From: a virus
Virus record (IMG/VR): IMGVR_UViG_3300044984_001421
Location: 1 to 64,000 of that record
Direction: 5' to 3' (one strand)
Length of the DNA: 64,000 nt
Part shown: piece after piece, positions 7,829-60,041 of the stretch
How the letters are laid out: the number at the start of each line of letters is the position of its first letter
Numbering within the stretch: position 1 is the stretch's first letter
Notes under the pieces: model-generated
Told to the model about the DNA's origin: nothing
The model's input: the letters and a program-made list of their open reading frames with translations, nothing else
Database searches by the model: none
Position numbers and translations under genes: made by a program

Positions 7829-8215
7829 ATGAGATCAATCGACATCATCGAAGCCGCAGAATTCCTTGGCCTGCACTGCAACACCCTGCAGGCCAGGGCG
7901 AAAGCCGGCGAAATCCCTGGCGTCAAGATCGGGAAAGAGTGGAGATTCATCGACGTTGATCTTGTCGAATACATGCGCTCACAATACCTGTCCAACAAAC
8001 AGGACGGGCAAGAGTCGTGTCGATCTACAAGCGAGGCGAAATCTGGTGGTACTCGATCACGCTCAAAGGTAGACCAAGGGCTAGAGGAAGCACTGGCGAG
8101 AGTGATCGGGAAAAGGCGCAGCGCAAGCACGACGAGATCAAAGCAGAACTCTGGCAAGCCAAGCCTGTCCGTGGTGCAGAACGCACATGGAACGACGCAT
8201 GCATTGCCTGGCTGA
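7829..8215 (+). CDS. Excisionase-like HTH_17 protein (overlaps int)
   Basis: EAAEFLGLH..TL..A..GEIPG.KIGKEWRF, directly upstream of the integrase. Confidence 0.75.
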   Translation: MRSIDIIEAAEFLGLHCNTLQARAKAGEIPGVKIGKEWRFIDVDLVEYMRSQYLSNKQDGQESCRSTSEAKSGGTRSRSKVDQGLEEALARVIGKRRSASTTRSKQNSGKPSLSVVQNAHGTTHALPG

Positions 8216-13834: not shown

Positions 13835-14911
13835 TTAAATTGATTCGGTTGAGATCAGGCGGCTTCCGAACATCGCAGAACCGTCAAAGCGAACGCTGCC
13901 GTCGTAGCGCCAGACTTCTGTAATGGTGATGTCGCAGCTATCGGTAATTGGCGCGTCGTAGGTGTCAACGATTTCGCTGGACCCGCTGATGCCGATTTGT
14001 CGCATGTAGGTGCCGGCGTCGCGCAGGCGGTTGACCTGTTCGCTCACTGCCTGGATATAGCTGGTGACGTTGGCGTCGCCAAGGATGTCGTATTCGACCA
14101 GCACATCAAACAGACCGTAGGTGCCGGCGATATTGTGGATCGCGTACCGTCGTGAACCATCGAAGTTCCATGTGCCATCGAAGAAGTTGGTTTCAACTGG
14201 TAGCAGCGCGCAATCGACAACACTGGCATCAACGCCGGACGCTTCTTTGATGGCGGCGGCGATGGCGAAGTTGTTGCCCTTCGGGCGCAAGGTCTCGGCG
14301 ACGATGCGCGGCCCGTATGCGGCATCTGATTCGCCAAGGATGCGCTGCACTTTGTAGTAGCTGCCGAGTTCATCGAGCCAGAAGCCCTCGGCTGTGCGCA
14401 AGCTCATCTGTTTGAGCATTTCGATGATCGCTAGCGCGGCATCCGCCAGTTCCGCCGACAGCGACGACACATAGCTCCACAGCAGCGACGTGTAGGCGTA
14501 GAAGTGGTCGCCGTTGGTCTCGTCCTGATTGCCTTCGCCATCCAGCAGCACCAGCGCCGACAGGCTGCCGTAATTGCCGGATTCGTAGACGATCGAGTAG
14601 CCGCCAAGCGATGCGACGTAGTCGGCCAGTTCGGCGATCGTGTATTGCGACAGGTCAATGTTCAGGTTCGATGTGGCGAAGCCATCGCCGCCATCAAGAT
14701 CCTGCGTGCCGTCTAGCCGCCACGTTCCGTCCAGGTAAAGCGGTCTGGCCGTGACAGTTTGCGGATCGACAACCGTGCTCAGAATGCCGTCGCGGATACG
14801 CCAGGTCATCGTGCCCGGATAGCGAATGCGCAATGCCAGTTCGCGGCCAGGGTCTTTGTCGAAGATCCGGTGCAGATGACCGAGCAGTTTTTGGGTCAGC
14901 GCGGAGTTCAT
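13835..14911 (-). CDS. Baseplate wedge protein (gpI-like)
   Basis: TAEG.WLD.LG.YY.V.R..GESD..Y..RI; downstream of the J-like gene. Confidence 0.7.
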   Translation of the reverse strand: MNSALTQKLLGHLHRIFDKDPGRELALRIRYPGTMTWRIRDGILSTVVDPQTVTARPLYLDGTWRLDGTQDLDGGDGFATSNLNIDLSQYTIAELADYVASLGGYSIVYESGNYGSLSALVLLDGEGNQDETNGDHFYAYTSLLWSYVSSLSAELADAALAIIEMLKQMSLRTAEGFWLDELGSYYKVQRILGESDAAYGPRIVAETLRPKGNNFAIAAAIKEASGVDASVVDCALLPVETNFFDGTWNFDGSRRYAIHNIAGTYGLFDVLVEYDILGDANVTSYIQAVSEQVNRLRDAGTYMRQIGISGSSEIVDTYDAPITDSCDITITEVWRYDGSVRFDGSAMFGSRLISTESI

Positions 14912-35348: not shown

Positions 35349-38300
35349 TTAGAACATGGATGCCTGCGGCTGATCAGTCTTTGGCTTGATGAAAGACGCA
35401 ATCCCTGTGTCGTCCAGCCCATCCATCGGGTCGGTCATAAACTCGCGCAGCATGTGCTTCTTCGCCAGGCGGTCGCGCGCAGCCTTCTCGGATTTGTGAT
35501 TGGCAACAACATCCAGCAATTCGACGTTGTTCTTCTGTCCGAGCCGGTGGATTCGCGCATTGCGCTGACCGTGGACCATGGCGGTATTCGGCGAGTCGTG
35601 CTGGATAAGCCAATTTCCGCGCTGGAGGTTGAGTCCAACGGCTGCCGCGTCAGACGCGACCATGATGTCCGCCGATGCTTCTCCGCTCTCCGGGTTGAAC
35701 TGCTTGCGCTTGGCATCCTTGTCCTGCGCCGAGTCAGATCCGGTGATGGTGACGACGCGATGGCCGGCAGCCTTCAGGCGCTTCTCGATTTCAGCAACGG
35801 CAGCGCGACTGTGCGCGAACACAACGCCGGGCTTGCCTTTGCGCGCGCCGACCAGTTCCATGACCTTGTCGATCTTGGCGTTATCCGGGTGAGTGTTGAT
35901 GATGCGCGATGCGGCGGATTCCTTGATGATGCCAAGCGACTCCTGGATGTTCTTGGCGATCGCTTCGTGCTGTTCTTCCGGTACCCCGTCGAAGGAGTCC
36001 GGGCTGATCGCCTTGCAGGATGCGACATCGACCTTGCCGGCCGTTTTTGCCGCCTTGGCTTTCGACATCGACTTGTCGAGCGCAGCAAGTGCTGACTTCT
36101 GGCCGGCAGACAGTTCGACTTGATGGACTTCATGCTGCGCGTCGACGTCTGGCGCGATAGTGTTTGAGATTACGTGGCGGGCCATTTCGCGCTTTAGCGC
36201 AGCCTTTGCAGCAATGGTGTCGCCGCCGTACTTGCGCATGAATGCTGCGCGGTCTCCGTAACGCTCGCGGTCCATTTTCGCCATGACGTCGTGAATTTCA
36301 GAACTGTCGTTCTTGATCGGATCGCCAGATCCGTAGACGTGGTATTCGGCATTATCAGAGACGGCATCGATCACGTTCGACCGAGCAGAATTCTCCTTTC
36401 CGGCACGATTTACGATCTGGTGCGCTTCATCGACCATGGTAGCGTCGAAGTTCATGCCTTCCTTGTCCATCACTTCCTTGGCCCAGGTCTTGCGCTCGGC
36501 CGGCGTCATGGCAGACAGCTTGGCGTTCATTTCTGACTCGGTGATGCCGGCGTGCTTGGCACCCAGGTGCTGCATGTCGGCGCGGAACGATTCGTGCGTC
36601 ATCACCGCGAAGTGATGGTCCGGATTCTTGTAGGCGGCAATCCGCTCTGCCTGCGACGCGCCCGGCTGACAGTGCCAGTTGAACTTGCCAGGCTCCAGGT
36701 AGCGCAGAGCCTCGCCGCCAAATTGCCCCTGGACGACAGAAGGCACCAGCATCAGCGCCCGCTTGATCTTGCCGGTTTCGTGCAAGTGCGAGAACGCGCC
36801 CAGGTAGATGCCGGTCTTTCCGGAGCCGGCACCGTAGGACAGAACCGTCCGCTTGTTGGCTTCGATGTGCTTGATGGCACGCTGCTGCGGCGTGTACTTG
36901 TCGTTCATCGACGGCTGCCACAGCTTCGTCGGATGCCCTGGTTTGAAGTTCTTCCCGACCACCGACATCATGCCGGCGATCTGCTGCTCGGCGGCATGGC
37001 CCAGCGTGTGGCGTTCGTCGGCCCCCAGCGGAACCTTTTTCCCGGCGTCAGGAAGATGGTCTTCTTCGGTCGAGAAGAAACCCATCTGCGACTGTTCGAA
37101 TGCCGCCTTGGCTTCCTGCTGCGCCTCGATCTTGTCTGCAACAGATCCTGATGAGTACTTGCCACCGGCACGCTCGCGCAGAGAATCCACCAGCGCGCGA
37201 TGCGATTCCTCACGCTTGGCACGTGCGGCAGGATCGACTGCATCCAGGTGGTTCAAGTTGCCAGCGATAACCGTCTTGCCGACCTTGAGCGGGTTCTTCT
37301 TGTTGAGCGTGTTGTGGACTTCTGCAAACTTGCTGACAACATGGGAGCGGACCAAGTCCTGCACCGACTTGATGGCATTCTCCGGGCTGCCCATGATGCC
37401 GACGTACTTGTTCCAGTCCAGGCCGGAAGAACCAGCAACCTGCGACAGTTCGTCACGCTTGGCATTCCAGGCTGACCACTCCGGCGTCGTGGACGTCTCG
37501 CCGAACATATCGACGGATTCCTTCTCCGGCTCGTTGGCAAGGTGCGCCTCATGTTCGTCGCGCGCCGCCTTGCCGGCTTCGTCCACTTTCGCCAGATTCT
37601 CGTTGAACCACTTCCGGAGTCCAGTGCGCTCCTGCGCAGACAGGTCGCCGATGGGCTTGAACGCTGCGACACCTTCCGGCGTTTCAGACAGCGCACGATG
37701 CAAAGCATCGACGGATTTCTGGTTGATCTCGATCTTCTGCCGATGCAGCGGAGAGCGGTCGCCGCCCATCTTCCCAACATAGTCGTCGGCCATTTTCTCG
37801 AACTCGCCAGCCAGGCTCTCGACCGGGCGCATCTTGCCGTCTTCACTCTTGAGCGGAGCAACAGAGTCGAGCGCAGCACGGTAGGCTTCAGGGTCGCCAG
37901 ACTTGGCATGGAAGTCGCCAGACTGGATATCGGCCAGGATGTCTGCGGGTGAATCGCCGTCTGCCGCGCGCCCGCCGATGTAGTCGCGGAGCGATTGCGC
38001 CAGGTCAGCGCCAGGCTTGAACGGTTGCGCCAGGCGTTCAGCGACGCCAGGCTCTGCCTTCATCGCAAGATCCGGCCGGTTGGCAAAGCCCTTCGGCAGC
38101 CAGCCGTCCTCGTCATGCTTTCCGGAGATGATGTCCATGTTCCGGCTGATCTGCTTCATGCCTTCGACATCAACAGGCGCAGCAAGTCGGTCCAGACCTT
38201 CACCGGTAATCGTGGTGACAAGGTTCCCGTTCACTGATTCCAGCTTGTAGTCGCCAGACTTCAGACCGAGCGCGTGCAGTTTGGTAATCGCCGACTTCGG

Positions 38301-40496
38301 GTCCACCTTTCCGAGCGACACCTCGACATGGTCCTTCGCGCCTTCGCGTAGCGCCATCACCAGCGACGCGCCGGCCTGCAGTTGACCGGTTGCCTGCCCG
38401 AGTACGCGCTTGGCCTGCATGACGGCTTCCCGGCGCTTGTGATTGGCTTCTTGGGCGGTTGCCAGGTCGTATCCGGTTTTGCCTTCCGGCATTTCGATTT
38501 CACCAGCGGCGTCGGCGAGTTCGCGCGCCTGCTTGACGGCATTCTGCTGGATGTCGTTCTGTGACTGGACGTGGTAATTCTCGGCACCTTGGCGGATGCG
38601 GTCCAGGTCGCCGGCTTCGTAATCCTTGTGGATGCGGCGGGCAATGATCTGCGACGCGGCACTGATGCCGAGAACGTCAACCACCGAACGGTCGATCATC
38701 GAGTCACCGGCTGCAGCCTGGGCGAAGGCGTTCAGCGCGTTGAATGCGCCGGCTCCGACGTGACCGCCAAGCGATTCCTCGCCGCCCATCTTGTCGATCT
38801 CTGACAGCAGGCCGACAGCGCCGATGGTCTTGATGTCCTGCTCCATCTGTTTGCGCGCGGCGTCTTCAACATCGGCATCCGACACTTCGAGGATGTGCGC
38901 CTTGGACTCAACCACGGAAGCGCCGTCCAGTTCCATGCTGGCATGACGCGCGGCCATTTCGAGCATCTTCAACTTCTTCTGCGCCTTCACCAGCGCGGCA
39001 GCTTTCTTGGCGTCGTCCAGCACCTTCGGCTGCGGCTTGACCGTTTCCGGATTGGCGAGCTTGAAGTCTTCTACCTCTTTGGCGATGCCGGCAGCCAGGT
39101 CTTTCTTCTCGGCAGCCTTCGACGCCTGCGCAGCCAGTTCATCCGGCGACTTTGCATCCGCGCCGTGGACATTGGTCAGTTCCGCCTCGACAGATTCCGG
39201 AGTCAAGCCTTTGTCTGCCGCGCGCTTGCCGAAGTCTTGCGAGAAGCCCAGGCCGGGCGTCTTTTCCGGCATCGGGTCGAGGTCGGCAACGGAAATCTGG
39301 TCCGGGCTGGGGTCGGTCAGCGGGATCTCTCCCAGGCCGGATGCCGCGAGAGCTTCGTGGTCTTCGACCAGATTCTTGCGGTTCATTTCAACGGCAGCCT
39401 TGGCGCGATGGAAGATGTCCTTGTCGTGTTCCTTGCGGGCTTTCGCCTGGGCTTCTTCGGACAAGCCGGCGTGCGCTTCTTCATCGAACGCCAGCGACTT
39501 GTCGTCCCAGCCCATAACGTCGGCGACCGTCTTCACGAATTCCTCGCGCTGCTTCTTGACCGACTCCTTCAGCGCGCCCTTCTCGGCTTGCTTCTGGTTG
39601 TGTATGCCGGCTGCCTTGTCGGCTTCGATTTGCTTCTTCTTGGCTTCCTGCCGAGCCTGCCCGCGCTGCTTGATGGAGTCCTTGTAGGACTCGCCGGTCT
39701 TCACCGAGCGCAGCTTAAGATGGTTCAGCGCGCCGCCCGCGCCGCCGATGACGCGCATCGAGCCGTCTTCGTGCGGCATAACCAGAATCGGGCTGCCCTT
39801 CGCGCCTGGGTGCGAATGAACAGTGACCCAATGTGCCCCGGCAGGGATGGGACCGTGCTCGGATTTCAGCATGTGCTGACCGAAGTCTAGAGAATGATCA
39901 AAGTCAACTCGGGCAACTCGGGTAACCGGGTCAATTACCCGATTTGCCCGGACTTCCGCCTTCACCATCCGCCCGTCAGCCGCCAGCACCTTCTGCTTGA
40001 ATTCCTCCACCGGCATAGCCGTGACCGGACCAAGGAAACGAGGGTCGTCGTAGTGAAGCAGGTAGGCGCGCTCGGCTTCTTCCTGGCTGGCAAATTGGAG
40101 CATCGCCTTGTCCTCGTCATACCGATCCCATGCGCCTGCCTTGCGCTGGTGGATGATGTAGACCATCGGCGCGGTTTCATCCGGCCCGAGGTAGCAATCC
40201 ACATGGTCACCGTCGACACCCAGGCTGGACAACACATAGCCGTAGGGAAACACCATCCGCGTCCCCCAGGCGTGACCGTCCCGATCAACGCCACGCCGGA
40301 ACGAGCCGGCCTCGTTTTCAATCGAGATGGTCAGGCCATTCCAGGCGACCTTGCGCTTGCCGTAGTTCCCGGCCTTGATCTGCGCCGGGGTCGGCTCATG
40401 CGGGAAACGGTAGACGGCGTTCTGAGTCTCAGCCTTCGCCAGCGGCGTGCCGACGAAAGCTGCAATGTGACTACGGAGTGCGGATAGAGAGTCCAT
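35349..40496 (-). CDS. Polyvalent protein: inorganic-pyrophosphatase-like domain plus SNF2 helicase
   Basis: GNY.K..ISIEN..GS.R.G..YGY..G.DGDHVD..DE.K.ML; GAGSGKT, DEAH, GLNLQ, QRNARIHRLGQ. Confidence 0.8.
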   Translation of the reverse strand: MDSLSALRSHIAAFVGTPLAKAETQNAVYRFPHEPTPAQIKAGNYGKRKVAWNGLTISIENEAGSFRRGVDRDGHAWGTRMVFPYGYVLSSLGVDGDHVDCYLGPDETAPMVYIIHQRKAGAWDRYDEDKAMLQFASQEEAERAYLLHYDDPRFLGPVTAMPVEEFKQKVLAADGRMVKAEVRANRVIDPVTRVARVDFDHSLDFGQHMLKSEHGPIPAGAHWVTVHSHPGAKGSPILVMPHEDGSMRVIGGAGGALNHLKLRSVKTGESYKDSIKQRGQARQEAKKKQIEADKAAGIHNQKQAEKGALKESVKKQREEFVKTVADVMGWDDKSLAFDEEAHAGLSEEAQAKARKEHDKDIFHRAKAAVEMNRKNLVEDHEALAASGLGEIPLTDPSPDQISVADLDPMPEKTPGLGFSQDFGKRAADKGLTPESVEAELTNVHGADAKSPDELAAQASKAAEKKDLAAGIAKEVEDFKLANPETVKPQPKVLDDAKKAAALVKAQKKLKMLEMAARHASMELDGASVVESKAHILEVSDADVEDAARKQMEQDIKTIGAVGLLSEIDKMGGEESLGGHVGAGAFNALNAFAQAAAGDSMIDRSVVDVLGISAASQIIARRIHKDYEAGDLDRIRQGAENYHVQSQNDIQQNAVKQARELADAAGEIEMPEGKTGYDLATAQEANHKRREAVMQAKRVLGQATGQLQAGASLVMALREGAKDHVEVSLGKVDPKSAITKLHALGLKSGDYKLESVNGNLVTTITGEGLDRLAAPVDVEGMKQISRNMDIISGKHDEDGWLPKGFANRPDLAMKAEPGVAERLAQPFKPGADLAQSLRDYIGGRAADGDSPADILADIQSGDFHAKSGDPEAYRAALDSVAPLKSEDGKMRPVESLAGEFEKMADDYVGKMGGDRSPLHRQKIEINQKSVDALHRALSETPEGVAAFKPIGDLSAQERTGLRKWFNENLAKVDEAGKAARDEHEAHLANEPEKESVDMFGETSTTPEWSAWNAKRDELSQVAGSSGLDWNKYVGIMGSPENAIKSVQDLVRSHVVSKFAEVHNTLNKKNPLKVGKTVIAGNLNHLDAVDPAARAKREESHRALVDSLRERAGGKYSSGSVADKIEAQQEAKAAFEQSQMGFFSTEEDHLPDAGKKVPLGADERHTLGHAAEQQIAGMMSVVGKNFKPGHPTKLWQPSMNDKYTPQQRAIKHIEANKRTVLSYGAGSGKTGIYLGAFSHLHETGKIKRALMLVPSVVQGQFGGEALRYLEPGKFNWHCQPGASQAERIAAYKNPDHHFAVMTHESFRADMQHLGAKHAGITESEMNAKLSAMTPAERKTWAKEVMDKEGMNFDATMVDEAHQIVNRAGKENSARSNVIDAVSDNAEYHVYGSGDPIKNDSSEIHDVMAKMDRERYGDRAAFMRKYGGDTIAAKAALKREMARHVISNTIAPDVDAQHEVHQVELSAGQKSALAALDKSMSKAKAAKTAGKVDVASCKAISPDSFDGVPEEQHEAIAKNIQESLGIIKESAASRIINTHPDNAKIDKVMELVGARKGKPGVVFAHSRAAVAEIEKRLKAAGHRVVTITGSDSAQDKDAKRKQFNPESGEASADIMVASDAAAVGLNLQRGNWLIQHDSPNTAMVHGQRNARIHRLGQKNNVELLDVVANHKSEKAARDRLAKKHMLREFMTDPMDGLDDTGIASFIKPKTDQPQASMF

Positions 40497-40524
40497 CAGC
40501 ACATCGTGGCGTCACGACACAGGG

Positions 40525-43181: not shown

Positions 43182-43258
43182 GGGTAAAGCATATCACGCC
43201 GCGCGGGCGAAGCAACTCAAATAAAAAACAGAACAATTTAATTATCTAACATTTCTGT

Positions 43259-43286
43259 TTGCTTTATAACAAAACTGTTATAGAGT
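43259..43286 (+). promoter_or_regulatory. Island promoter P1 with palindromic operator
   Basis: TTGCTT-16 nt-TAGAGT; TATAACA-aaac-TGTTATA. Confidence 0.7.
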
Positions 43287-43317
43287 GAGGTCGTCCCCAA
43301 ACAAACAGGAGCACGAA

Positions 43318-43969: not shown

Positions 43970-44193
43970 CCGCAGCACTCATCACAGAACAAATCGTGGA
44001 CCCAGGCAAGAACATGATGGAGTTCATCGTGGACGCTTCCAGCATCGGACTGAAGCCGGGTGAGTGGCCTGACACACTCGCAACGAACATGGGAAACACG
44101 CTCCCGTTCGCCAAGATCAGCGCCGACGCAGAAGGAACGCATGTGTACCGGCAGATTGCCGGCGGGATCACGCTGACCGTCCTCAACGACTAA
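43966..44193 (+). CDS. Hypothetical protein
   Basis: DASSIGLKPGEWP..Y.Q..L.V.ND motif. Confidence 0.55.
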   Translation: MTAALITEQIVDPGKNMMEFIVDASSIGLKPGEWPDTLATNMGNTLPFAKISADAEGTHVYRQIAGGITLTVLND

Positions 44194-44225
44194 AACATAA
44201 TTGTTTTATTTCTTAACTTTTCTGT

Positions 44226-44253
44226 TTGCTTTCTAACAGTTTTGTTATAAAGT
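44226..44253 (+). promoter_or_regulatory. Island promoter P2 (copy of P1)
   Basis: TTGCTT-16 nt-TAAAGT; TAACA-gttt-TGTTA. Confidence 0.7.
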
Positions 44254-44284
44254 GAAGTTGTTCCAAACAGACCGGAGAAACAGC

Positions 44285-50264: not shown

Positions 50265-50627
50265 ATGTGGATCGCACTTAATAACAGCTTCTTAAGCATT
50301 GTCCGAAAGCAGCCGCGCGACAAGTTCCTGACCGTCCGCGCCAGGGTTGCTGGCGACATTGAGCGCGTGTTCCCGGACGCTAAGGTCCAGGTCGGAGGCG
50401 GAACGGATTACAAGTTCCGCGCGCAGATCGGCGATAAGGTCGTGGCGGATGCCATCGCAAAGCAGATCAAAGGCATCAGCTACGGCAACTTTAAGGACAG
50501 CGTGCAGGACGATGACCGGCACGATGCCTACTTCAACGTGTGGCGCGCGATGATGGCGATGCAGAAGATGCCAGTCGACCACCGGCAAGATGCGATGTTT
50601 GACTTCTACGAAGACAGTGTCGATTGA
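50265..50627 (+). CDS. Conserved phage hypothetical protein
   Basis: MWI....FLSIV..L.VRAR..DY..RA..I.Y.NFK. Confidence 0.65.
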   Translation: MWIALNNSFLSIVRKQPRDKFLTVRARVAGDIERVFPDAKVQVGGGTDYKFRAQIGDKVVADAIAKQIKGISYGNFKDSVQDDDRHDAYFNVWRAMMAMQKMPVDHRQDAMFDFYEDSVD

Positions 50628-50629
50628 TT

Positions 50630-50693
50630 ACGCAACGCTGGCGTAACCGGCGCGCAGCGAAGCGGAGCGTCCGCGTTGACGCAAATGTTAGAA
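50630..50693 (-). repeat. attC site A
   Basis: Minus strand: TTCTAAC atttg CGTCAACG ...GCTTCGC... GGTTACG ccagc GTTGCGT. Confidence 0.8.
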
Positions 50694-50711
50694 CTCAGGA
50701 GGGAATAGACC

Positions 50712-50918
50712 ATGCAACTCAGAGAGGGCGAAGTGGCTTTTGTGATGGCGCAAATTGCGCTGCTGAACTGCGAAGTGGCTGGCATGCAGGCCGAAAACAC
50801 GCACCGCCTGAACTGCGGAAATTCCGTTGCCTACGGCGCGGACGAGTTCGCGGCCGTGCGGCAGCAGTACGAGGCGCTGATCGGCAGCAACGCGATCTTA
50901 GAGATGGCGCGGTCATGA
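50712..50918 (+). CDS. Cassette-borne hypothetical protein
   Basis: AGGAGG RBS; GM.AEN..R...G.S.AY motif. Confidence 0.65.
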   Translation: MQLREGEVAFVMAQIALLNCEVAGMQAENTHRLNCGNSVAYGADEFAAVRQQYEALIGSNAILEMARS

Positions 50919-50976
50919 GTTCTAACGAATGACGTGTTAGCCACGACACGCTAAAACGTGGCACCACTGAGAGGAT

Positions 50977-51345
50977 ATGAACGTGCGAACTTTGACTGAC
51001 CATAAGATTAACCCCGGCAATGACACGCTGACCATTACCGTGCTGGACGAACCTGGGCACGGTGGAGCAAACCACGCCTACGACATCGAAGGTGGCGAGG
51101 CGGTACCGACGCACCTGCGCTTTCAAAACGGCCCGATCAACGCGGACGGCAACGGCGTGAATGGCATTACTCACGAGGCGTTGCTTGCGGTGCTGTGTGA
51201 CCGCCTGCGTGGGTTCCAGGCGGGGCAGTATGCCTGCAAAGCGAACGCTTGCGCACTGACCCACCTGGAAGAAGCACAGCACTGGCTGCAACAGCGCACC
51301 ATCGAGCGTATGCGGCGTGGCGTCGAAGGCACGCACACGGTTTGA
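50977..51345 (+). CDS. tad1: Tad1-like anti-Thoeris signalling-molecule sponge
   Basis: G.GGA.H.Y, FQNG, DRL..FQAG, NACALTHLEEA..W..R..R..R.V.GT match the recalled Tad1 signature. Confidence 0.78.
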   Translation: MNVRTLTDHKINPGNDTLTITVLDEPGHGGANHAYDIEGGEAVPTHLRFQNGPINADGNGVNGITHEALLAVLCDRLRGFQAGQYACKANACALTHLEEAQHWLQQRTIERMRRGVEGTHTV

Positions 51346-51381
51346 TGTTATGGCCGGCATGACGACGCGAGAACTCATGCC

Positions 51382-51472
51382 GGCTAACGAACCAGCTAAG
51401 TGGCGCGCGTGACCAAGCCAAACGAAGCTGCGCCGGATGTTCGCGCGTCCCGCCTTGAGCGCCTTGTTGGGC
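51382..51472 (-). repeat. attC site C
   Basis: Minus strand: GCCCAAC aaggc GCTCAAG ...GCGCG/CGCGC... CTTAGC tggttc GTTAGCC. Confidence 0.8.
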
Positions 51473-51636
51473 TTCTCTGGGCGATCATCTGGCGTCGATG
51501 GATGACTGGGCCTGGCGGTCACAAGCGGCGAGTGGTGCGCGTTAAGGGGTGGCGCACAGCCATCGTCGAGAGCGACTGGGAAATGCGCGTGACGGTGACG
51601 CCGTGTTTCTCGGTTTTTGGATGGCGGTTCGATTGA
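51409..51636 (+). CDS. Cassette-borne hypothetical protein starting inside attC
   Basis: Only ORF that fills the cassette; start uncertain. Confidence 0.4.
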   Translation: MTKPNEAAPDVRASRLERLVGLLWAIIWRRWMTGPGGHKRRVVRVKGWRTAIVESDWEMRVTVTPCFSVFGWRFD

Positions 51637-51640
51637 TGAC

Positions 51641-51708
51641 GCCGAACGCCTAGCTAACCGGCGCAGGCGGCCTTATCGCCTGCGTCCGGGTTGAGCGACG
51701 TGTTATGC
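51641..51708 (-). repeat. attC site D
   Basis: Minus strand: GCATAAC acgtc GCTCAACC ..GCAGGCG/CGCCTGC.. GGTTAGC taggc GTTCGGC. Confidence 0.85.
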
Positions 51709-51731
51709 CTTTGACAACGAAAGGATGCGCA

Positions 51732-52415
51732 ATGGAACACACAAAAGAGCGTTGGGAGTGGTCGGAGCACAAATTCAACGCGCCGCCGTTCGAGGGGACA
51801 CTTGACCACGAATGCGGCATTTACCCACCAGACGGCGAGAGCGGCCCTGTGGCGATAGCCAGCGGGAAGAACGACGCACGGCGCATTGTGGCTTGCGTGA
51901 ATGCTTGCGCCGGAGTGACGACGGAAGAACTTGAGCAGGGCGGGTTTGTTTCTGGACTGATTGAGCAGCGCGACGAGCTTGCAAAACTGTGCAACTACAA
52001 CGAGCGCTTGATGCAGGACTGTTTGCGCCTGGCCGAAGAAGCGCCGCGCTGGCGTGATGTGGTTGATGAGCTTCCGCAAGAGGCGCAAGAAGTGCTGTTT
52101 GTGCGTGACGGAAAGACAGTTCACGGCGCGTGGATTGGCGGGATATTCTGGCACAGCAACAAGAAGATGGCCGCTGCGCAATGGATGCCACTGCCGAAAC
52201 CGCCAACGGCGGCGCTTGCGAGACGGCGGCCTGTGGCGTGGATTCGGTTTTGCAGCGACGGATGCTACGAGGGGCCGATCATGGACGCACAGATTGAAGA
52301 TGTGCGAAAGCAAAGCGGGGCATGGACTCCGCTCTATAAGCACAACGACTTGCGACTGGTGCAGGTTGGTCCCTGCACATGCAGCGACCACGAATGCGGG
52401 GAGTGCATGCGATGA
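51732..52415 (+). CDS. Cassette-borne mosaic phage protein (DUF551-like segment)
   Basis: DARRIVACVNACAG, W....ELP..WMPLP.PP motifs. Confidence 0.65.
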   Translation: MEHTKERWEWSEHKFNAPPFEGTLDHECGIYPPDGESGPVAIASGKNDARRIVACVNACAGVTTEELEQGGFVSGLIEQRDELAKLCNYNERLMQDCLRLAEEAPRWRDVVDELPQEAQEVLFVRDGKTVHGAWIGGIFWHSNKKMAAAQWMPLPKPPTAALARRRPVAWIRFCSDGCYEGPIMDAQIEDVRKQSGAWTPLYKHNDLRLVQVGPCTCSDHECGECMR

Positions 52416-52654
52416 ACTTCGACGACTGGATGGCTACGCAAAACCCTAAGTACATGCCGACCGACGACACTGTGGCGCTGAGGTTGCTGCGCGATTGCTG
52501 GAGAGCGGCGGAGTTCCACAGTGATAGAGCGCAGGAGCGCGAGCGGATGATTGCACTGATGCGAGATAAGTGCAGGAAAGTCGGCGCTGACAGGACGGCG
52601 GCACCTCATGGGCGTTGCGGCATACCAGGAATGCTTGGACACCATGAGGCATAA
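52412..52654 (+). CDS. Cassette-borne hypothetical protein
   Basis: ATGA-coupled; its TAA lies inside the GCATAAC boundary. Confidence 0.5.
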   Translation: MNFDDWMATQNPKYMPTDDTVALRLLRDCWRAAEFHSDRAQERERMIALMRDKCRKVGADRTAAPHGRCGIPGMLGHHEA

Positions 52655-52702
52655 CGCATGAGACACAGCAGAATTGACGTATAACTGCGAAATCTAGATG
52701 TT

Positions 52703-53926: not shown

Positions 53927-54417
53927 GCCGGCATCCTTTCTTCTGCTCCCATCAGAACTTTGACCGCGTACTGCAGCGACGGCTTGAGCATCACACCAAA
54001 CAGCATGTCGTCGCCATCGGCCAGCTTCCACTTCTCGATAACCAGCGCAGCCAGCCAGTCGAACAGGACCGCGACAGGATCATCGGCGAACTCATGCCGG
54101 TGAGCATGCCAATGCGGTCCCAGGTCAATCTTCAGCTTGTTGCCCAGCGTGAAGTCGTTATAGCCATTGATGATGCTGTAACCAGGGTCACGCCCGGAGA
54201 AGATGCCGGCCAGACGGGTGATCTCAGAGCCAAGTTCAGCATGCGCAGAATCTCCCGGAACCTCTCCGGAAGACGCTGCCATGGCAATCGCTTCAACCTT
54301 GGCGGCGAATCCACCAACCAAGCCGGCGACTACATCAGGATTGCCAAGACTGGTCGCGCTTGACGGGTCCGAGAAGGCTCCTGGCGATACACGATAACGG
54401 TCTCTTTCTTGTCCCAT
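53923..54417 (-). CDS. Hypothetical protein (possible immunity/chaperone)
   Basis: Helical 164-aa ORF between the ART and NUDIX genes; lacks the tag. Confidence 0.5.
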   Translation of the reverse strand: MGQERDRYRVSPGAFSDPSSATSLGNPDVVAGLVGGFAAKVEAIAMAASSGEVPGDSAHAELGSEITRLAGIFSGRDPGYSIINGYNDFTLGNKLKIDLGPHWHAHRHEFADDPVAVLFDWLAALVIEKWKLADGDDMLFGVMLKPSLQYAVKVLMGAEERMPA

Positions 54418-57400
54418 TCCGAATTACTCCTTAACGATTTCGCCAGCGTCTGGCCTTTAAGTTGAGCCACGAAGCCAGTGTCTGGCGGCAGCATGATAAC
54501 GTCGATGAATACGCCTTGCGGGTGGTTGTGACCGCCAGGCTGAACATCGACTACCAGATACCGCTGGCCCGGCAACGTTGTCAGTTCGCCCTCACTGCCG
54601 AGAGAGCCTGTGCCATACGTCGGCGTTGCTTTGCACCCTGCCGCGCAGCGAATCCGCATCTTGATCTGCTTGCCGTCCCCGTTCGTAAAGTGCGGCGAGT
54701 CGCCCCAGCTTTCGTGGAACGAGGTACACATCGAGTCCGTGTTCTGCAGTATAGCGCCCGGCTTGGTGGCGAGAAGCTGCTTGGTCATCGACTTGCCAGC
54801 CGTGTCGTCGTCCATCCATCGCCACATCTGCGTGCCTTCAGGAAGATCCACAGCGTCGTCGTAGATGCCAGCCGTCACCTTGTTGATCGGCGTCGAGTCG
54901 TATGACGACTTGCCATGCGACCACAGATGGTTTGCAGCACCAGAACCCTGCACACTTGAGATGTAGGTCTTGGTCGTGCTCCTGACCTTTTGATAGGCAG
55001 CCTTGAGCATTCCAGCGAACGATGTTCCTGACTTCTGCCAGAACCACTTCGTCCTTTTCAACAACGCGACAGCATCGCCTTCATCGATCTGGCACAACTT
55101 CATGAAGTACCCGAGACGGTGCTCCTGCGGGATTGTCGTCACGTTCTGGCCTGGCGCGAAAGAACCGACCGCATCGGCAATCTCGCTGACCAGACCGAAG
55201 CTGCCAAGCGACGGCATCTCCAATGTTTCGACAGGAGGATAGCCAATCGACTGCAGCGTCTGGACCAGCGACGCCCACTGCTGCTGGATGTGGTTGGAAG
55301 GATGCTCTGTAATCGGCTTCTTGCCGATGGACTGGCCGGTCTCCTTGTCCACCGCGTCGTAGTGGTAATCCTTCAACGCCTTCAGGTTGCCTTGCATGGC
55401 GAAGGCTGCCAGAGCCGCGCTGTCGGCGCTGTTTTTGTCGTTGACGTGCTGCTTCGAAGATACCGGCTTTCCGCCGTTCAGCGTGTTGAAGTCAAGCGGC
55501 GGCTTGATGTCGGCCGGGTCGACGGTCAGCTTTGTCTCATCGACCGGAGGCGTATCCCACTGGTCGACAATTCCCATCTGCTTCAGGACGTCAGCGCGCC
55601 TGGCAATCAGCTTCTTGGCAAGCGCGGCCTTTTCCGCATCCGTGCCAGGCCCGGCAATTTTGCAGAGTTCTTCGATTTGCGACGGCTTCAACTTGTTCAA
55701 CTGCTTGCCACCCCAGGCAATCGATGCGTCCGTAGCGCCGGCAAAGACCGCCGCAGCCTTGGCGTTCTTGCCGTAGTCCTTCATGGTCTTCAACTCGGCA
55801 ACCGTGTCGCCGAAGTCCGCGCCCTTCTTGCCGCCCATGGCACGGTAGTCGAGCGAACCGCCCACGTCGATGCGGACAGCGCCGCCTGAACTGTTGAGCA
55901 GCAGGTTGTCGTTCGCCATGCCGACGACATCCCAGTTGCCGATCCAGGCGTCGATGGCGAATGCCTGGTGTGCGCCAGCTGCGCTGGCAAGATTCTCAGC
56001 GCTGCCCTTCTTCATCCCATCAACCCACTTCGAGGCGATACCCAGCTTGCCGTCCTTTTCGACCAGCTTCAGCGTCGGAACATCGACGCCAAGCATCTGG
56101 TAGAACTTGGCAGCCAGGAATTCGCTGCGCACCATTTCGGCGTCGGCCGGGAACTTGCAATACCACTCCTGCCCGCCTTTGTCCTTGAACTTTCCGCCAG
56201 GGTTTGAACCCAACTGCGGACCAGTCTGCGGCCAGGAATCCATTACCGAAACGTGGTCGCCAAGCTTTGACTTGGCAATCGAGATCGGCGCTGCCGGTTC
56301 AACTTTGTGCCAATGGCCGTTTTGGAACACCAGCATGCCATCCGCGCCCTGCTTGGTATCGCCGTCCTTCGGGCTGGCAGATTGAGCGGCAGTAGAACCC
56401 AGTGCAGCGGGGTCAACGCCTTCTGCTTCCGGATCGAACTTGCCAAGCGCAGCGGCATGCATTTGCTGGCAGAACTTGTAGAACTGTTGACGACGAACAA
56501 GCGTCGAGATCGATGTACATTTTCCTGTTTTGAATCCAGTGACGTTTTGCTTCGCCGAAACAGAGCCGTCGTTGTGGAAAGTGACGTACTGCTTCAACCC
56601 TGTAACTCCGCCATTCAATACTGCGTTCTTTATCGCAGTCGAGATGTTGACGTAGATTTTTGAGTTTTGATGCGGATCAAGCGTCTCGTAATCCGGTACC
56701 GGAACTGCCGCTATCTGCTGCGCCTTGGTCAGTTTTTTCTTCTTCTTGAAGACGATGACAATCGGCGGAATCTCGGTGGGTATTGGCTCGAAGCCGGAAG
56801 AGCCGACATAGCTGTAACCGTTTGCGCCCTTCATTCCGACCAGCTTGATCGCAGCCTTGACCGCCGCGTCGTTGCTGGCATGGACTTCGTCGCCGCTGTG
56901 GCCTTTCTGCCCGATCTTGCCGTAGGTCTTGGTCAAAACAGTGCCATGGACCTCGACCTTGTAGAACTTGTTGTGCCCTGGTTTTTTGTTTTCCATGTGC
57001 GCAATCCACTTGTACCCGGTGGCAGGCTGCGCAGCAGGAGCCGCAGGAGCTGCAGCCACACCCTTGATCTTGTCCAGCATTCCGGAATCCGGCATGTGAA
57101 CGCCGAACATCTTGTCCAGCGTGTTGCGGACGTCGTTTTTGTCGAACGCGGACCATGGGCCAGAACCGCTACCATCGGCATCGGATGTGCCAATTTGGTA
57201 CTCTTTCAGGTCATTGTCCCAGCCCACATAGATGGTTGATGTGGCTGTGTGCTCAAGCAGGATCACGTTGTTCCCGCTGAACCCTTCGTCGTTCATCGAC
57301 ACTTGCCAGGTGCCGGATGGCGCAGGAGCATCGGACGCTGCCGGCTTGGCCGATTCCTGCTCGGCCTTTTCCTTCAGAAACTCCTGCTGTCCATTGGTCA

Positions 57401-60041
57401 AAGAATGCCAAAGCGCCCACATGGTCTTGTCCGTGTTGTCGGTCTGCGGCATGCCAGCCGAGATCCACAACTTGAGCGCGTGCTCGTCTTCAGCAGACAC
57501 ATTGGATGGAGCAACCTGCAAGTGCCAGCGACCGTTGAACAGGACGTAGTTCTTGCCGTTGATTTCCTTGACGTCGCCCTCTTTCGGCCCGCCTTCCTGC
57601 GTTTTCTGGCCTGGATGAAAGGCCAGGTTGAGCATCTTTATCGGGTCAGCGCCTTCGTTCTGGACAGCAACCTCGACCGCAAGTTCATAGGACGCTGAGT
57701 GCATCGGCGGCGATGCGGGAGCAGGAATCTCGCCGGCCAGCATCGAGAACATGGCAGCCTTCCAGCCGTTCTTGCTGTAATCCTGTCCGGTCAAGATGTT
57801 CTTCCAGGAGCCGTCCTTCTGCTTCTGGTAGTTGTGCCCTTTGTACGAAGCGTTCACCGCCATCTTGCCAGCGGCAGCATCCATCTTGCCGGCCGTTTGC
57901 ATGGCCTGGTCGAGCGCGTACATCGGAGAAGACCAGCCGTCGCCGTCCAGTTCATCGTCGATGAACGACTGATAGAAGCCATCGGCAGTCTTGACGACCT
58001 TCACATGGTGCCCGTTTACGTTGTCGAACAACACAGTCTCGCCGGCAGCAGGAGGAACGTCAGGCATTACCGGAGCACCGACCTTGCCGCCTTGTTTCTT
58101 GTTTTCCGCCTTCAAGTGCTGGACTGCCGTCTTCAACGCGGAAGGTTTCAGCCCTGCGTTGTTCGCCAGAGCCGTAACGACACGCTCCAGCGCTTCACTC
58201 GGAACGTGGGCGAGGACCGACATATGATCAATCACGGCGTTGATTGCTTCCTGCGACGGCATGTCGGGAGTGGATGGCTTCGAAGCTGCAAGCCACTGCT
58301 CTCCTGCCTTGTCGATCAAGTGACCAACTTTATCCAGCCCATGCTTGGCAATCGCCGCACTTATGTGCTGCTGGCCGTTCAGTTCCTCGTAAGTCATTGC
58401 TTCGTGCTGCTCGACAGTCGGCACCTTGCCGGCATCGAGCGAGGCGTGCCAGCCATCAACGCCAGGGATGGTGTGCGGGTCAACGTCTGGCGCGACCTCT
58501 GATTCATGCAGCCACACGGCAACCTGCTTCGGGTTGAATCCGTTCTTTTGATACGTCCCTTGATCGACACTGGATAGGTGGGCATACACCGTCTCGTCGG
58601 CCGAGAGCTTTGCGCCGATGGCGAGCAGATACCACTTGCCACCGTCGTAATCGACGACCTTCTTGTCGGCCATCTTCGCCTGGTATTCTGCCTTTTCTTT
58701 TTCGGCTAAAGACGGCGACTTGTGCCAACGCCCGTCCTTGAAGGTCAGCGTCCCGCCTTCGCCTTGCTTGGTGTCGCCATCCTTCGGCGAATCATCCGCT
58801 TGCAGCACCACCTTTGCAGTACCGGCAGCGAGCGCAGCGTGCAGCGTCTCCTTCGGGATTGAGACGGTGTTCTTCGGGCCAGGCACCGTCGCTCCGACCT
58901 TGTGCATCTGGTAGGAGTCTGCGCTCTGGTTGTAGATCGTCCAGTCGCCCGCGTTCATCTTGGCGTACTGGCTGTCCAGCTTCAGCACAGCGCCGGTCTT
59001 GAGGTCCGGGTGCTTGGCAGGCTCTGGTACCGGAGCGGCAATGTTCGCGGCATTCCAGCCGACAGACCACTCCTGCAGCGCGTCCATGTATTCGGCATAC
59101 GGCAGATGGTTGTGCGCCTGCAAGAAGTCCTGGTCGATACCTGCTGCGTGCGGCTTTCCAGCAGCGAACGCCGCTGCGCCGTATTCCTTCGGGGTCATGG
59201 GCTTCTTGTCGTTCGCATCGACATGAACAGGCGACGTGTCGCTGTTTTCCGTTTTCTTCGACACGACACCCATCAATGCCTCGGCCTTTTCAGCGCCAAT
59301 GGCCGACTCGATATCTGTCGCCATTTTGGCGACTTTGACCGGGTACTTAGCTGCGTACTCGAAGTACGCCTTCTTCTGGCCGGAAGTCGGCGTCTGGCCG
59401 GCGAGCATTGCCGCCTTCCAGCCCGAAACAGCAGCGGACAGCGAAGCCTCGGCCTGCAGATCGGTGGCGTGCGCCAGGACCAGCATCGCCTTGTCGTGGT
59501 CGCCAAGCGCGCCGAAGTCTTTCAGTTCCGCCGACAGCTTCTTGTGCGCGGCTTTCTGGTAGTGCGAGCCTTGGCCGTTTCCGACCTTGGCATGGTCGTG
59601 GTCGTCCGAGACGTTGACCATCTTGTGATGGGCATGGATTACCGTGCCGTCCTTCTTCACCGACGCAGGAATCCACATCTCCTTTTTCACGGTCGCCTTC
59701 AGCAAGTCCTCGGTGAACACCAGTATTGACTTGTGAATCGGCACGCCGGAAGACTTCGCGTTCTGAACAGCCGCATGCAACTGCTCGGCGGTTGCACCTT
59801 CGCCGCCGAATAGATCGTTCGTGCATTTTTCAGGCTTCTTCATGCATTCGTCAGAGAACGGCGACGCCTTCATGGGTGGTGCTTTCGGACGGGCGAACAG
59901 ATCAGACGTGTGCGCGTCCTTGGAGGCTCCGCGCGAGTTTGAATGCGGTGACACCTGGACGACGCGACCGTTGGCAAGGCGACGCTCGTAGCCACGCACA
60001 GCGCCCTTGATGATGTCGGTGACGAAAAACATGATGGTCAT
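54330..60041 (-). CDS. Giant polyvalent protein: WGR + HipA/PI3K-like kinase + ADP-ribosyltransferase
   Basis: NKFYKVEV..YGKIGQKG (WGR); GSNPGG..WYCK..E.LAAKFY..DAWIGNWDVVG..N..RIDVG (kinase); MWRW..CTS..EGE (R-S-E ART). Confidence 0.75.
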   Translation of the reverse strand: MTIMFFVTDIIKGAVRGYERRLANGRVVQVSPHSNSRGASKDAHTSDLFARPKAPPMKASPFSDECMKKPEKCTNDLFGGEGATAEQLHAAVQNAKSSGVPIHKSILVFTEDLLKATVKKEMWIPASVKKDGTVIHAHHKMVNVSDDHDHAKVGNGQGSHYQKAAHKKLSAELKDFGALGDHDKAMLVLAHATDLQAEASLSAAVSGWKAAMLAGQTPTSGQKKAYFEYAAKYPVKVAKMATDIESAIGAEKAEALMGVVSKKTENSDTSPVHVDANDKKPMTPKEYGAAAFAAGKPHAAGIDQDFLQAHNHLPYAEYMDALQEWSVGWNAANIAAPVPEPAKHPDLKTGAVLKLDSQYAKMNAGDWTIYNQSADSYQMHKVGATVPGPKNTVSIPKETLHAALAAGTAKVVLQADDSPKDGDTKQGEGGTLTFKDGRWHKSPSLAEKEKAEYQAKMADKKVVDYDGGKWYLLAIGAKLSADETVYAHLSSVDQGTYQKNGFNPKQVAVWLHESEVAPDVDPHTIPGVDGWHASLDAGKVPTVEQHEAMTYEELNGQQHISAAIAKHGLDKVGHLIDKAGEQWLAASKPSTPDMPSQEAINAVIDHMSVLAHVPSEALERVVTALANNAGLKPSALKTAVQHLKAENKKQGGKVGAPVMPDVPPAAGETVLFDNVNGHHVKVVKTADGFYQSFIDDELDGDGWSSPMYALDQAMQTAGKMDAAAGKMAVNASYKGHNYQKQKDGSWKNILTGQDYSKNGWKAAMFSMLAGEIPAPASPPMHSASYELAVEVAVQNEGADPIKMLNLAFHPGQKTQEGGPKEGDVKEINGKNYVLFNGRWHLQVAPSNVSAEDEHALKLWISAGMPQTDNTDKTMWALWHSLTNGQQEFLKEKAEQESAKPAASDAPAPSGTWQVSMNDEGFSGNNVILLEHTATSTIYVGWDNDLKEYQIGTSDADGSGSGPWSAFDKNDVRNTLDKMFGVHMPDSGMLDKIKGVAAAPAAPAAQPATGYKWIAHMENKKPGHNKFYKVEVHGTVLTKTYGKIGQKGHSGDEVHASNDAAVKAAIKLVGMKGANGYSYVGSSGFEPIPTEIPPIVIVFKKKKKLTKAQQIAAVPVPDYETLDPHQNSKIYVNISTAIKNAVLNGGVTGLKQYVTFHNDGSVSAKQNVTGFKTGKCTSISTLVRRQQFYKFCQQMHAAALGKFDPEAEGVDPAALGSTAAQSASPKDGDTKQGADGMLVFQNGHWHKVEPAAPISIAKSKLGDHVSVMDSWPQTGPQLGSNPGGKFKDKGGQEWYCKFPADAEMVRSEFLAAKFYQMLGVDVPTLKLVEKDGKLGIASKWVDGMKKGSAENLASAAGAHQAFAIDAWIGNWDVVGMANDNLLLNSSGGAVRIDVGGSLDYRAMGGKKGADFGDTVAELKTMKDYGKNAKAAAVFAGATDASIAWGGKQLNKLKPSQIEELCKIAGPGTDAEKAALAKKLIARRADVLKQMGIVDQWDTPPVDETKLTVDPADIKPPLDFNTLNGGKPVSSKQHVNDKNSADSAALAAFAMQGNLKALKDYHYDAVDKETGQSIGKKPITEHPSNHIQQQWASLVQTLQSIGYPPVETLEMPSLGSFGLVSEIADAVGSFAPGQNVTTIPQEHRLGYFMKLCQIDEGDAVALLKRTKWFWQKSGTSFAGMLKAAYQKVRSTTKTYISSVQGSGAANHLWSHGKSSYDSTPINKVTAGIYDDAVDLPEGTQMWRWMDDDTAGKSMTKQLLATKPGAILQNTDSMCTSFHESWGDSPHFTNGDGKQIKMRIRCAAGCKATPTYGTGSLGSEGELTTLPGQRYLVVDVQPGGHNHPQGVFIDVIMLPPDTGFVAQLKGQTLAKSLRSNSEWDKKETVIVYRQEPSRTRQARPVLAILM

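Follow-up and report, generated by a model that had tools for sequence, protein, structure and literature searches.

The DNA analysed here, which we call the window, is the first 64 kb (positions 1 to 64,000) of the 85,367-bp IMG/VR virus record IMGVR_UViG_3300044984_001421, a record with an estimated completeness of 93%. At 50622–52655 the window holds an array of four integron-type cassettes, one of which carries a homologue of the immune-signal sponge Tad1. Bacteria capture resistance genes by means of integrons and, as has lately become known, anti-phage defence genes as well; phage-borne clusters of integron attC sites have so far been reported as rare curiosities. The virion and replication genes of the window encode a baseplate wedge protein, a tail sheath protein, a major head protein, a RecE-like exonuclease and a DarB-like helicase protein; since baseplate, sheath and head genes are present, we identify the genome as that of a myophage. 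Virion genes flank the array on both sides within the window, and this stretch is contained in lake-water metagenomes. A co-directional run of small genes on the + strand, from about 43.3 to 52.65 kb, includes the open reading frame (ORF) of the Tad1 homologue. Up to 50.6 kb the run has no intergenic DNA, because most of its genes overlap by ATGA; four intergenic stretches follow between 50.6 and 51.7 kb, all of them containing TAAC/GTTA words. The array is thus placed in a + strand early operon of a lake-water myophage. Its features are given below; bit scores and E values are those of a covariance model built solely from phage copies of the attC family (those from viral contigs, together with both from the window, in a 42-copy alignment).

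50622–50701, + strand: attC 1, intact, the bottom strand being given; 64.0 bits, E 1.5e-15; boxes ACGCAAC (50630–50636) and GTTAGAA (50687–50693); in integron terms it belongs to the ORF68 cassette.
50712–50918, + strand: ORF68, the gene of cassette 50636–50925, with AGGAGG 8 nt 5′ of its ATG.
50919–50942, + strand: collapsed attC, consisting of the AAC box GTTCTAAC (50919–50926), the 9 nt GAATGACGT (50927–50935) and the GTT box GTTAGCC (50936–50942).
50926–51387, + strand: Tad1 cassette, from crossover GTTCTAA/C to crossover GGCTAA/C, delimited by box complementarity.
50977–51345, + strand: Tad1 homologue of 122 aa; GAGAGGA and ATG mark its start, with a good ribosome-binding site.
51347–51388, + strand: hairpin 3′ of the Tad1 stop codon, its 3′ arm running into the GGCTAAC box.
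51374–51480, + strand: attC 3, divergent; 30.5 bits, E 6.6e-06; GGCTAAC (51382–51388) and GTTGGGC (51466–51472).
51388–51646, + strand: cassette 3, with little or no coding capacity.
51633–51716, + strand: attC 4, intact; 65.3 bits, E 5.9e-16; GCCGAAC (51641–51647) and GTTATGCC (51702–51709).
51647–52654, + strand: cassette 4, with ORFs 51705–52415 (236 aa) and 52379–52654 (91 aa).
52648–52655, + strand: terminal AAC box GGCATAAC, complementary to GTTATGCC of attC 4.

The preliminary description had ascribed Tad1 motifs to the ORF at 50977–51345 and proposed a structure comparison, and both sequence and structure bear it out. Searched with phmmer against PDB sequences, the protein matched six distinct Tad1 chain sequences (8kbb–8kbh, 7uav, 7uaw, 8smd) at E values from 1.9e-16 to 4.8e-15, the best matches (8kbh, 8kbg and 7uav, E 1.9e-16) spanning residues 20–121 of the 122 in the query; PHROG 2428 was matched at E 8.8e-33. 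An AlphaFold2 model, made with 35 relatives, has a mean predicted local distance difference test score of 84.7 and comprises four strands and two helices. With this model as query, all 20 Foldseek matches at E <= 0.001 were Tad1, with template modelling scores of 0.73–0.79, and the next match had an E value of 0.21. According to a published study of Tad1 homologues, F82/N92 and R109/R113 of the Clostridium botulinum protein (CbTad1) make up the pocket for glycocyclic ADP-ribose (gcADPR), mutation of which reduces gcADPR binding, and R90/T97 contact cyclic trinucleotides (10.1101/2023.11.15.567273). In the phmmer alignment, where chain numbering is offset by one, the four pocket residues correspond to F80, N90, R107 and R111 of the window protein, a match at all four positions, and these are unchanged in 35 of 35 viral relatives. 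The trinucleotide contacts correspond to K88 and T95, of which T95 is kept; position 88 is variable among the 35 relatives (K, E, R, N or F). By sequence, fold and pocket residues, then, the ORF encodes a real Tad1, and the same evidence suggests that the 122-aa protein would sequester gcADPR.

Within the whole 85-kb genome the covariance model, run with filters off, gave three matches at E < 0.001, all of them between 50.6 and 51.7 kb. A weaker match inside a coding region, at 14207–14284 (21.6 bits, E 0.0024), was taken to be due to chance. The attC elements had first been recognised by eye and from shared 8–11-mers; a repeat search across 43–53 kb recovered no repeat family. The elements at 50622–50701 and 51633–51716 are mutually homologous, and attC 3 has a compensated AAG/CTT change in its L box and a long loop. 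For attC 1, homology to 21 other viral loci is limited to 50633–50691 and reaches 98% identity with their attC bodies; attC 4 is likewise up to 98% identical to attC bodies of other viral loci.

A 23-base pattern drawn from both intact elements matched IMG/VR contigs exactly at 62 places; species-representative genomes gave at least 120 matches, mostly in metagenome-assembled genomes of Burkholderiales, Rhodocyclales and Nitrosomonadales (Betaproteobacteria). On the + strand, the consensus of the 42-copy alignment consists, in its 5′ part, of a stop codon, an RYYYAAC box, five unpaired nt, nnTAAC-CGGCGC and a variable loop, and in its 3′ part of GCG(T)CCG(S)GTT(G)Ann, five unpaired nt and a GTTRRRY box. 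The AAC/GTT box pairs are retained in 37–41 of the 42 family members, and the boxes of the two intact elements (ACGCAAC/GTTAGAA and GCCGAAC/GTTATGC) each show one or two departures from the consensus. Two stem pairs in the L box that were free of the search pattern covary, both sides having changed in 21 and 16 of the 42 sequences, respectively. Counted from the + strand 3′ end, the bulged bases G16, C/G20 and T24 are found in both intact elements and throughout the alignment, with six pairs from the first to the last; the unpaired spacers of the intact elements are 5 nt long (GCTGG/CAAAT and GCCTA/GACGT), and loop length varies. As described by Nivina et al. (2016, PMC5027507), an attC site is defined by an extrahelical G16, an optional base at 20, a T at 23 or 24 and a 6-bp stem, all on one arm; the bottom strand of a three-bulge attC has this same bulge geometry, central spacers of 5–6 nt and a variable terminal structure, and the recombination point lies between the A and C of AAC.

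An integron integrase scoring above the TIGR02249 cut-off was present in all five tested bacterial genomes with several pattern matches and in none of 14 controls. Beside intI in the three bacterial genomes in which intI and the pattern lie on one contig, the covariance model found 106 matches in 100 kb, some of them counted twice because two of the five searched regions overlap by 10 kb. Every match in these bacterial arrays is on the strand that reads towards intI, from which it follows that the + strand of the window is the attC bottom strand. Two viral records, those of L008 and L134, likewise have IntI next to sites of this family. Run with nhmmer, the 42-copy alignment gave a less sensitive search than the covariance model, and this route was abandoned. 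Because the family fills intI-adjacent arrays, has the canonical G16/N20/T24 bulges and obeys the junction logic set out below, we identify the window elements as attC; these sequence features support the assignment of 50622–50701 and 51633–51716 to integron-type attC sites of a family native to betaproteobacterial chromosomal integrons.

The boxes that face each other across the cassettes of the window pair as follows.

Junction 1: GTT box GTTAGAACTCA at 50687 and AAC box TGAGTTCTAAC at 50916, 11 bp match.
Junction 2: GTT box GTTAGCC at 50936 and AAC box GGCTAAC at 51382, 7 bp match.
Junction 3: GTT box GTTGGGC at 51466 and AAC box GCCGAAC at 51641, match at 6 of 7.
Junction 4: GTT box GTTATGCC at 51702 and AAC box GGCATAAC at 52648, 8 bp match.

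Pairing is therefore perfect at three of the four junctions (7–11 bp) and reaches 6/7 at the remaining one, and the word pairs of junctions 1 and 2 occur nowhere else in the 85,367-bp genome. Among 167 distinct viral cassettes, the outer 4 nt of the GTT box matched the next AAC box at a mean of 3.28 of 4 positions, with 105 perfect matches. The same GTT boxes matched the AAC box of their own site at 2.19 of 4 (16 perfect), as against 2.20 ± 0.06 for shuffled partners; 18 further cassettes, in which a box was off the expected offset, were excluded from this comparison.

By the integron rule, the attC of the Tad1 cassette is the one that here lies 5′ of the ORF, and this is the collapsed element at 50919–50942. 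The preliminary description had read the site on the minus strand as GGCTAAC-acgtcattc-GTTAGAA with its L boxes lost. That reading, which is the correct top-strand reading, agrees with the DNA letter for letter: the outer boxes and 9 nt are left, and the L boxes are gone together with the loop and the bulged bases. The ACGTC spacer that it had matched to another site is indeed common to the attC at 51633–51716, the + strand word GACGTGTTA being present in both, and the cassette limits that it had given, 50926–51387, coincide exactly with both AA/C crossover points. Its interpretation of the Tad1 gene as an integron cassette gains support from the flanking attC family, which occurs beside intI, from the bulges and from the junction logic.

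The remnant itself gave no match to the covariance model, and on its own it is a 5-bp inverted repeat with no stable fold. It is significant because its boxes pair with neighbouring junctions, because relatives have a full site and because homology starts there. Of 10 Tad1 cassettes aligned from other viral contigs, 8 have a full attC body where the window has the remnant; these bodies end in ..GA(A/T)TGACG(G/T)GTTAGCC, the same end as the remnant, and the window retains GAATGACGT GTTAGCC only, joined to the AAC box of the ORF68 cassette. Five contigs have Tad1 cassettes whose homology to the window sets in at 50927 or 50928. The junction is bridged free of mismatches by contigs of two other lake runs (X10 record 3, 50662–51002; X14 record 20, 50913–51114), the lake runs having been compared as contigs. 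L boxes and bulges being missing, the remnant should not be a substrate of IntI (the roles of these features are as given in PMC5027507), and it is plausible that deletion of the attC fixed Tad1 in place. The Tad1 and ORF68 cassettes could still move jointly if 50622–50701 and 51374–51480 are active. Slippage across the hairpin is our guess at the deletion mechanism. An independent remnant, different and shorter (GTTCTAAC-GCGG-GTTATCC), is found at L007:5938–5960, after a different small cassette with the same end boxes.

Arrays of this family occur in dozens of viral contigs. Across the 62 viral loci found with the pattern, some of which are duplicates of one contig or near-identical, the covariance model gave 236 matches at E <= 0.001, with up to 12 per locus, at least two in 50 loci and at least eight in eight. 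In 80 Tad1-bearing viral loci it gave 38 matches (E <= 0.01), distributed over 11 loci. All of these counts are lower bounds, because other attC subfamilies in the same arrays are missed, for example after Tad1 in L007. Within loci, all but two of 273 matches lie on the majority strand. Among 30 viral records examined, 14 are at least 90% complete by CheckV and five have terminal repeats. Misclassification of bacterial arrays as viral contigs was considered and is countered by this completeness, by the terminal repeats and by the virion genes of the window; a doubt stays for short contigs (L135, L136).

Several observations bear on the mobility of the cassettes. Tad1 cassettes with 92–99% identical proteins lie beside differing attCs and neighbours in L002–L008 and L011, and L020 is more distant (73%). 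In the lake contigs the summed depth of both intact attC bodies is far above that of their surroundings, and the contigs diverge at 50634/50691 and 51645/51706–51708. An apparent joint from 52209 to 52407 in lake contigs (depth 2, side 26) was disregarded. The hairpin at 51347–51388, for which the DNA fold is −12.9 kcal/mol (z −3.8, none of 200 shuffles folding as well), recurs after the 73%-identical Tad1 of L020, and the 99%-identical Tad1 of L002 has another one; from this we conclude that cassettes are mosaic inside. The related phage contig L007, whose major head protein is 49% identical, has 10 covariance-model matches over 12 kb as against three in the window, so that array size varies between relatives. 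A full IntI is carried beside such arrays by two of 31 viral records. One is a complete integron at L008:4272–7838, on a 24.8-kb viral contig that is 39% complete; it consists of an attC array with DHH/DHHA1 and DUF7736 cassettes and with Tad1 (96% identical to that of the window) as its second cassette, followed by IntI (465.7 bits) and RusA, all on one strand. In the L134 record (35.9 kb, rated 100% complete), IntI lies downstream of such an array.

The remaining cassettes of the window are less informative. ORF68 had no match in Pfam or PHROG; its relatives are 41–42% identical hypothetical proteins in four Stenotrophomonas phage records, and its atlas neighbours are viral hypothetical proteins with scores below 0.9, none of them an informative relative. 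In cassette 3, a mechanical ORF at 51400–51636 is doubtful because its start overlaps the divergent attC 3. Cassette 4 has a weak DUF551 match (E 0.025), and the array of L091 holds DNA that is 92.5% identical over 51645–51966. On the 3′ side of 52655 there is AT-rich DNA (to 52702) without an attC body, and then a convergent gene; 52648–52702 is the integrase-proximal end of the array and may be a remnant of attI.

Phage and bacterial arrays differ both in the strand of their genes and in their cargo. Strand was scored by the longest ORF, provided that it covers half of the spacer or more; this crude measure gave the following result.

Phage arrays, 167 cassettes: ORF on the attC bottom strand in 110, on the top strand in 36, no such ORF in 21.
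Bacterial arrays, 54 cassettes: ORF on the attC bottom strand in 4, on the top strand in 44, no such ORF in 6.

Of the cassettes with such an ORF, 110 of 146 in phage arrays and 4 of 48 in bacterial arrays thus have it on the attC bottom strand. Phage cargo, assessed by Pfam on the 150 longest of 158 per-cassette ORFs, matched 26 families: N6_N4 DNA methylase nine times, Mom and DHH/DHHA1 twice each, Dam, MT-A70 and Lar once each, Acb2_Tad1 twice (E <= 0.001), and also pentapeptide, MazG, RNA ligase and a few DUF families. Bacterial cargo (70 ORFs from three arrays, with the first 25 of 72 families listed) included glyoxalase seven times, cupin, SnoaL, GNAT, GFA, HAD and R67 dihydrofolate reductase. 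Because orientation and cargo differ, the phage arrays are not mere fragments of host arrays. The cargo of the 150 phage cassettes provides circumstantial evidence that the ORFs neighbouring Tad1 in its array are candidate anti-defence genes. The DHH/DHHA1 phosphoesterase genes, found as phage cassettes at L008:4383–5192 and at one more place, encode enzymes that might degrade cyclic or linear oligonucleotide signals and could likewise be candidates. In the bacterial arrays (L274–L278, from G003, G004 and G005), an R67-type dihydrofolate reductase (DHFR_2, E 1.6e-40) sits amid otherwise metabolic cargo; in G004, intI is broken into two frames at 52030.

Taken as a whole, we favour, with a probability of about 85%, the account in which a Tad1 sponge gene is carried as an integron-type cassette in a phage cluster of attC sites lacking an integron integrase (CALIN), its own attC having later been deleted. 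The phage would make the sponge early in infection, sequestering the gcADPR of Thoeris and possibly the cyclic oligonucleotides of CBASS (cyclic oligonucleotide-based anti-phage signalling system). Cassettes would have arrived via IntI-type recombination at the AA/C point of their boxes, with an integrase supplied by the host or by a phage-borne integron. A later deletion would have removed L boxes, bulges and loop from the attC of the Tad1 cassette, fusing Tad1 to the ORF68 cassette and making it unable to leave alone. The phage operon would read the cassette genes through the attC sites. Because the + strand of the window is the recombinogenic bottom strand, these genes are inverted with respect to the usual integron orientation.

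Several points weigh against this account. No integron integrase was found with TIGR02249 at E <= 1e-5 in the 85-kb record, which is 93% complete, and the sole tyrosine recombinase (8017–9003) scores 27.6 bits against a cut-off of 265; lacking an integron integrase, the array is a CALIN and not a complete integron. Ten of the 12 stem pairs in the 42-copy alignment were fixed by the search pattern and hence are uninformative. The longest-ORF strand call is error-prone in GC-rich DNA, and 36 of 146 viral cassettes scored opposite. The Pfam family PF24729 (Acb2/Tad1 hairpin) was matched at 18.9 bits (E 0.0017), under its cut-off of 27; this family covers a 58-position hairpin only, its cut-off is a database criterion and not a biological one, and the direct match to solved Tad1 gives much stronger evidence. 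Of the two residues that contact cyclic trinucleotides, one is altered (R90 of CbTad1 to K88). Only 11 of 80 Tad1-bearing loci have a covariance-model match, so most Tad1 genes are not cassettes. Finally, Tad1 homologues were found twice in 401 sampled genomes of the order of G003, a search not used to conclude absence, and the ~3-kb loci around both gave no covariance-model match at E up to 0.1; exchange of Tad1 with bacterial integrons is accordingly undocumented.

The strongest alternative is that the array is an inert relic, picked up once, with sites that are dead in the phage lineage and with Tad1 as an ordinary early gene. The genome has no IntI, one attC is collapsed and another divergent, and the array is short, with four cassettes, all of which a relic would explain. 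However, the two intact sites have all features of pairing and bulges preserved, and their identity to the sites of other phages reaches 98%; array size differs between relatives, as the 10 matches over 12 kb in L007 illustrate; a full IntI stands beside such arrays in two of 31 viral records; and lake contigs show deeper attC bodies and diverge exactly at their edges. We therefore regard the relic as unlikely, albeit far from negligible.

A different question is what the sponge binds. Tad1 homologues are reported to vary in their cyclic-dinucleotide spectra, and all those tested in that study bind cyclic trinucleotides tightly (10.1101/2023.11.15.567273); given that T95 is kept and that K88 is a conservative change, the main target of this Tad1-fold protein might be CBASS cyclic di- or trinucleotides, or another signal, and not gcADPR. 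Against this, the four residues of the pocket for gcADPR and cyclic dinucleotides are invariant in all 35 relatives, whereas the trinucleotide contact position 88 is variable in the clade, and we consider a main target other than gcADPR improbable. It is very improbable that the elements are phage regulatory hairpins (terminators or RNA processing sites) merely resembling attC, since, although they are intergenic, transcribed parts of a single operon, a role as weak terminators has been proposed for attC sites (PMC9892861), and T-run terminators were not called at the elements in the promoter and terminator scan, the family forms intI-adjacent arrays in three of three bacterial contigs, the bulges stand at positions 16, 20 and 24, and cassette ends pair with the next junction and not with their own hairpin, which a purely RNA-level element leaves unexplained.

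The favoured account of Tad1 as a phage-borne cassette can be extended beyond this genome. We propose tentatively, and with the odds somewhat against us, that freshwater betaproteobacterial phages keep their own inverted cassette pool, a shufflable bank of counter-defence genes that would be exchanged between unrelated phages by host or phage IntI. Such a bank would contain Tad1, orphan DNA methylases, Mom, Lar, DHH phosphoesterases and many small proteins of other kinds with no assigned function, read towards the integrase end by phage operons. As pure speculation, transcription might expose the sites for recombination, the bottom strand being the non-template strand here.

Other features of the genome are as follows. 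A megablast search of 44–53 kb against isolated phages gave zero matches, and the promoter and terminator scan placed no feature at cassette junctions. The AT-rich intergenic stretches 43195–43300 and 44190–44275, just 5′ of early genes, share a long motif, TTCTGTTTGCTTT.TAACA...TGTTATA.AGTGA.GT, and are probably repeated early promoter or operator regions. Two very large proteins are encoded on the minus strand of the window, at 35349–40502 and 54330–60041; one is a 1717-aa DarB-like helicase/anti-restriction protein (PHROG 62 and 10089), and the other has 1903 aa. The phage seems to be rich in counter-defence functions.

The case is that of a biochemically understood immune-signal sponge gene carried as a cassette with exact crossover boundaries, and arrays with attC sites of this family are found in dozens of environmental phage contigs, among them several complete genomes. 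This suggests that phages are able to trade counter-defence genes as bacteria trade resistance genes. If the arrays are active, phages would own a modular exchange system for counter-defence genes, and cassette boundaries would offer a simple rule for picking candidate anti-defence genes from phage dark matter. If phages do keep a cassette pool of their own, the cassette genes of no assigned function would offer new anti-defence proteins in abundance, with their limits already marked. That the genes are inverted is a structural rule, and a testable one, that separates the phage from the bacterial cassette pool.

Phage attC clusters as such are already published. Qi, Rajabal, Ghaly, Tetu and Gillings (2023, PMC9892861) reported three complete integrons and 17 CALINs in 10,705 isolated phage genomes, with methyltransferase cargo, activity of IntI1 on some phage attC sites, and complete integrons in a few temperate phages. 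The array described here is like those CALINs in being an intI-less attC array inside a phage genome, and phage arrays of this family share their DNA methyltransferase cargo. It differs in that it carries a known sponge of immune signals, the words anti-defence, anti-defense and Thoeris being absent from the main text of that paper; in that its genes lie on the attC bottom strand, whereas "orientation" occurs twice in that text and no inverted-gene rule is stated at those places; and in that, against their CALIN counts, its attC family is found in 62 metagenomic viral loci. What appears to be new here is the Tad1 cargo, the rule that ORFs lie on the bottom strand, and a phage cassette pool rich in DNA methylases, Mom, Lar and Tad1. 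A literature search that left out supplements, which possibly hold cassette lists, found no paper on Tad1 or another sponge as a phage cassette or on inverted phage cassettes.

The sedentary chromosomal integrons of Betaproteobacteria (G003, G004 and G005) share with the phage arrays the attC family, the box logic and, in their own arrays, the polarity towards intI. They differ in that 44 of their 48 cassettes have the longest ORF on the top strand and in that their cargo is metabolic, as against the bottom strand in 110 of 146 and methylase, Mom, Lar, DHH and Tad1 cargo in the phage arrays. Compared with the Tad1 proteins of a Clostridium botulinum prophage (7UAV, 7UAW, 8KBE-H), Clostridioides mangenotii (8KBB-D) and phage SBSphiJ7, the window protein has the same fold, length, two C-terminal helices and F, N, R, R pocket. 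It is 33% identical to CbTad1 in the structural alignment, with K in place of a trinucleotide-contact arginine, and it is set apart from the known Tad1s by the proteobacterial host of its phage and by carriage in an integron cassette. Defence cassettes have been described in Vibrio chromosomal integrons (Darracq et al. 2024, 10.1101/2024.07.02.601686), and the AntiDefenseFinder paper places integrons among the bacterial locations of anti-defence genes, with Tad1 not linked to integrons in the portion of the text concerned (PMC11370490). As far as those accounts describe them, such cassettes use the same type of carrier for genes of the phage–bacterium conflict, but they lie in bacterial genomes, whereas the Tad1 cassette is phage-borne and would serve the phage.

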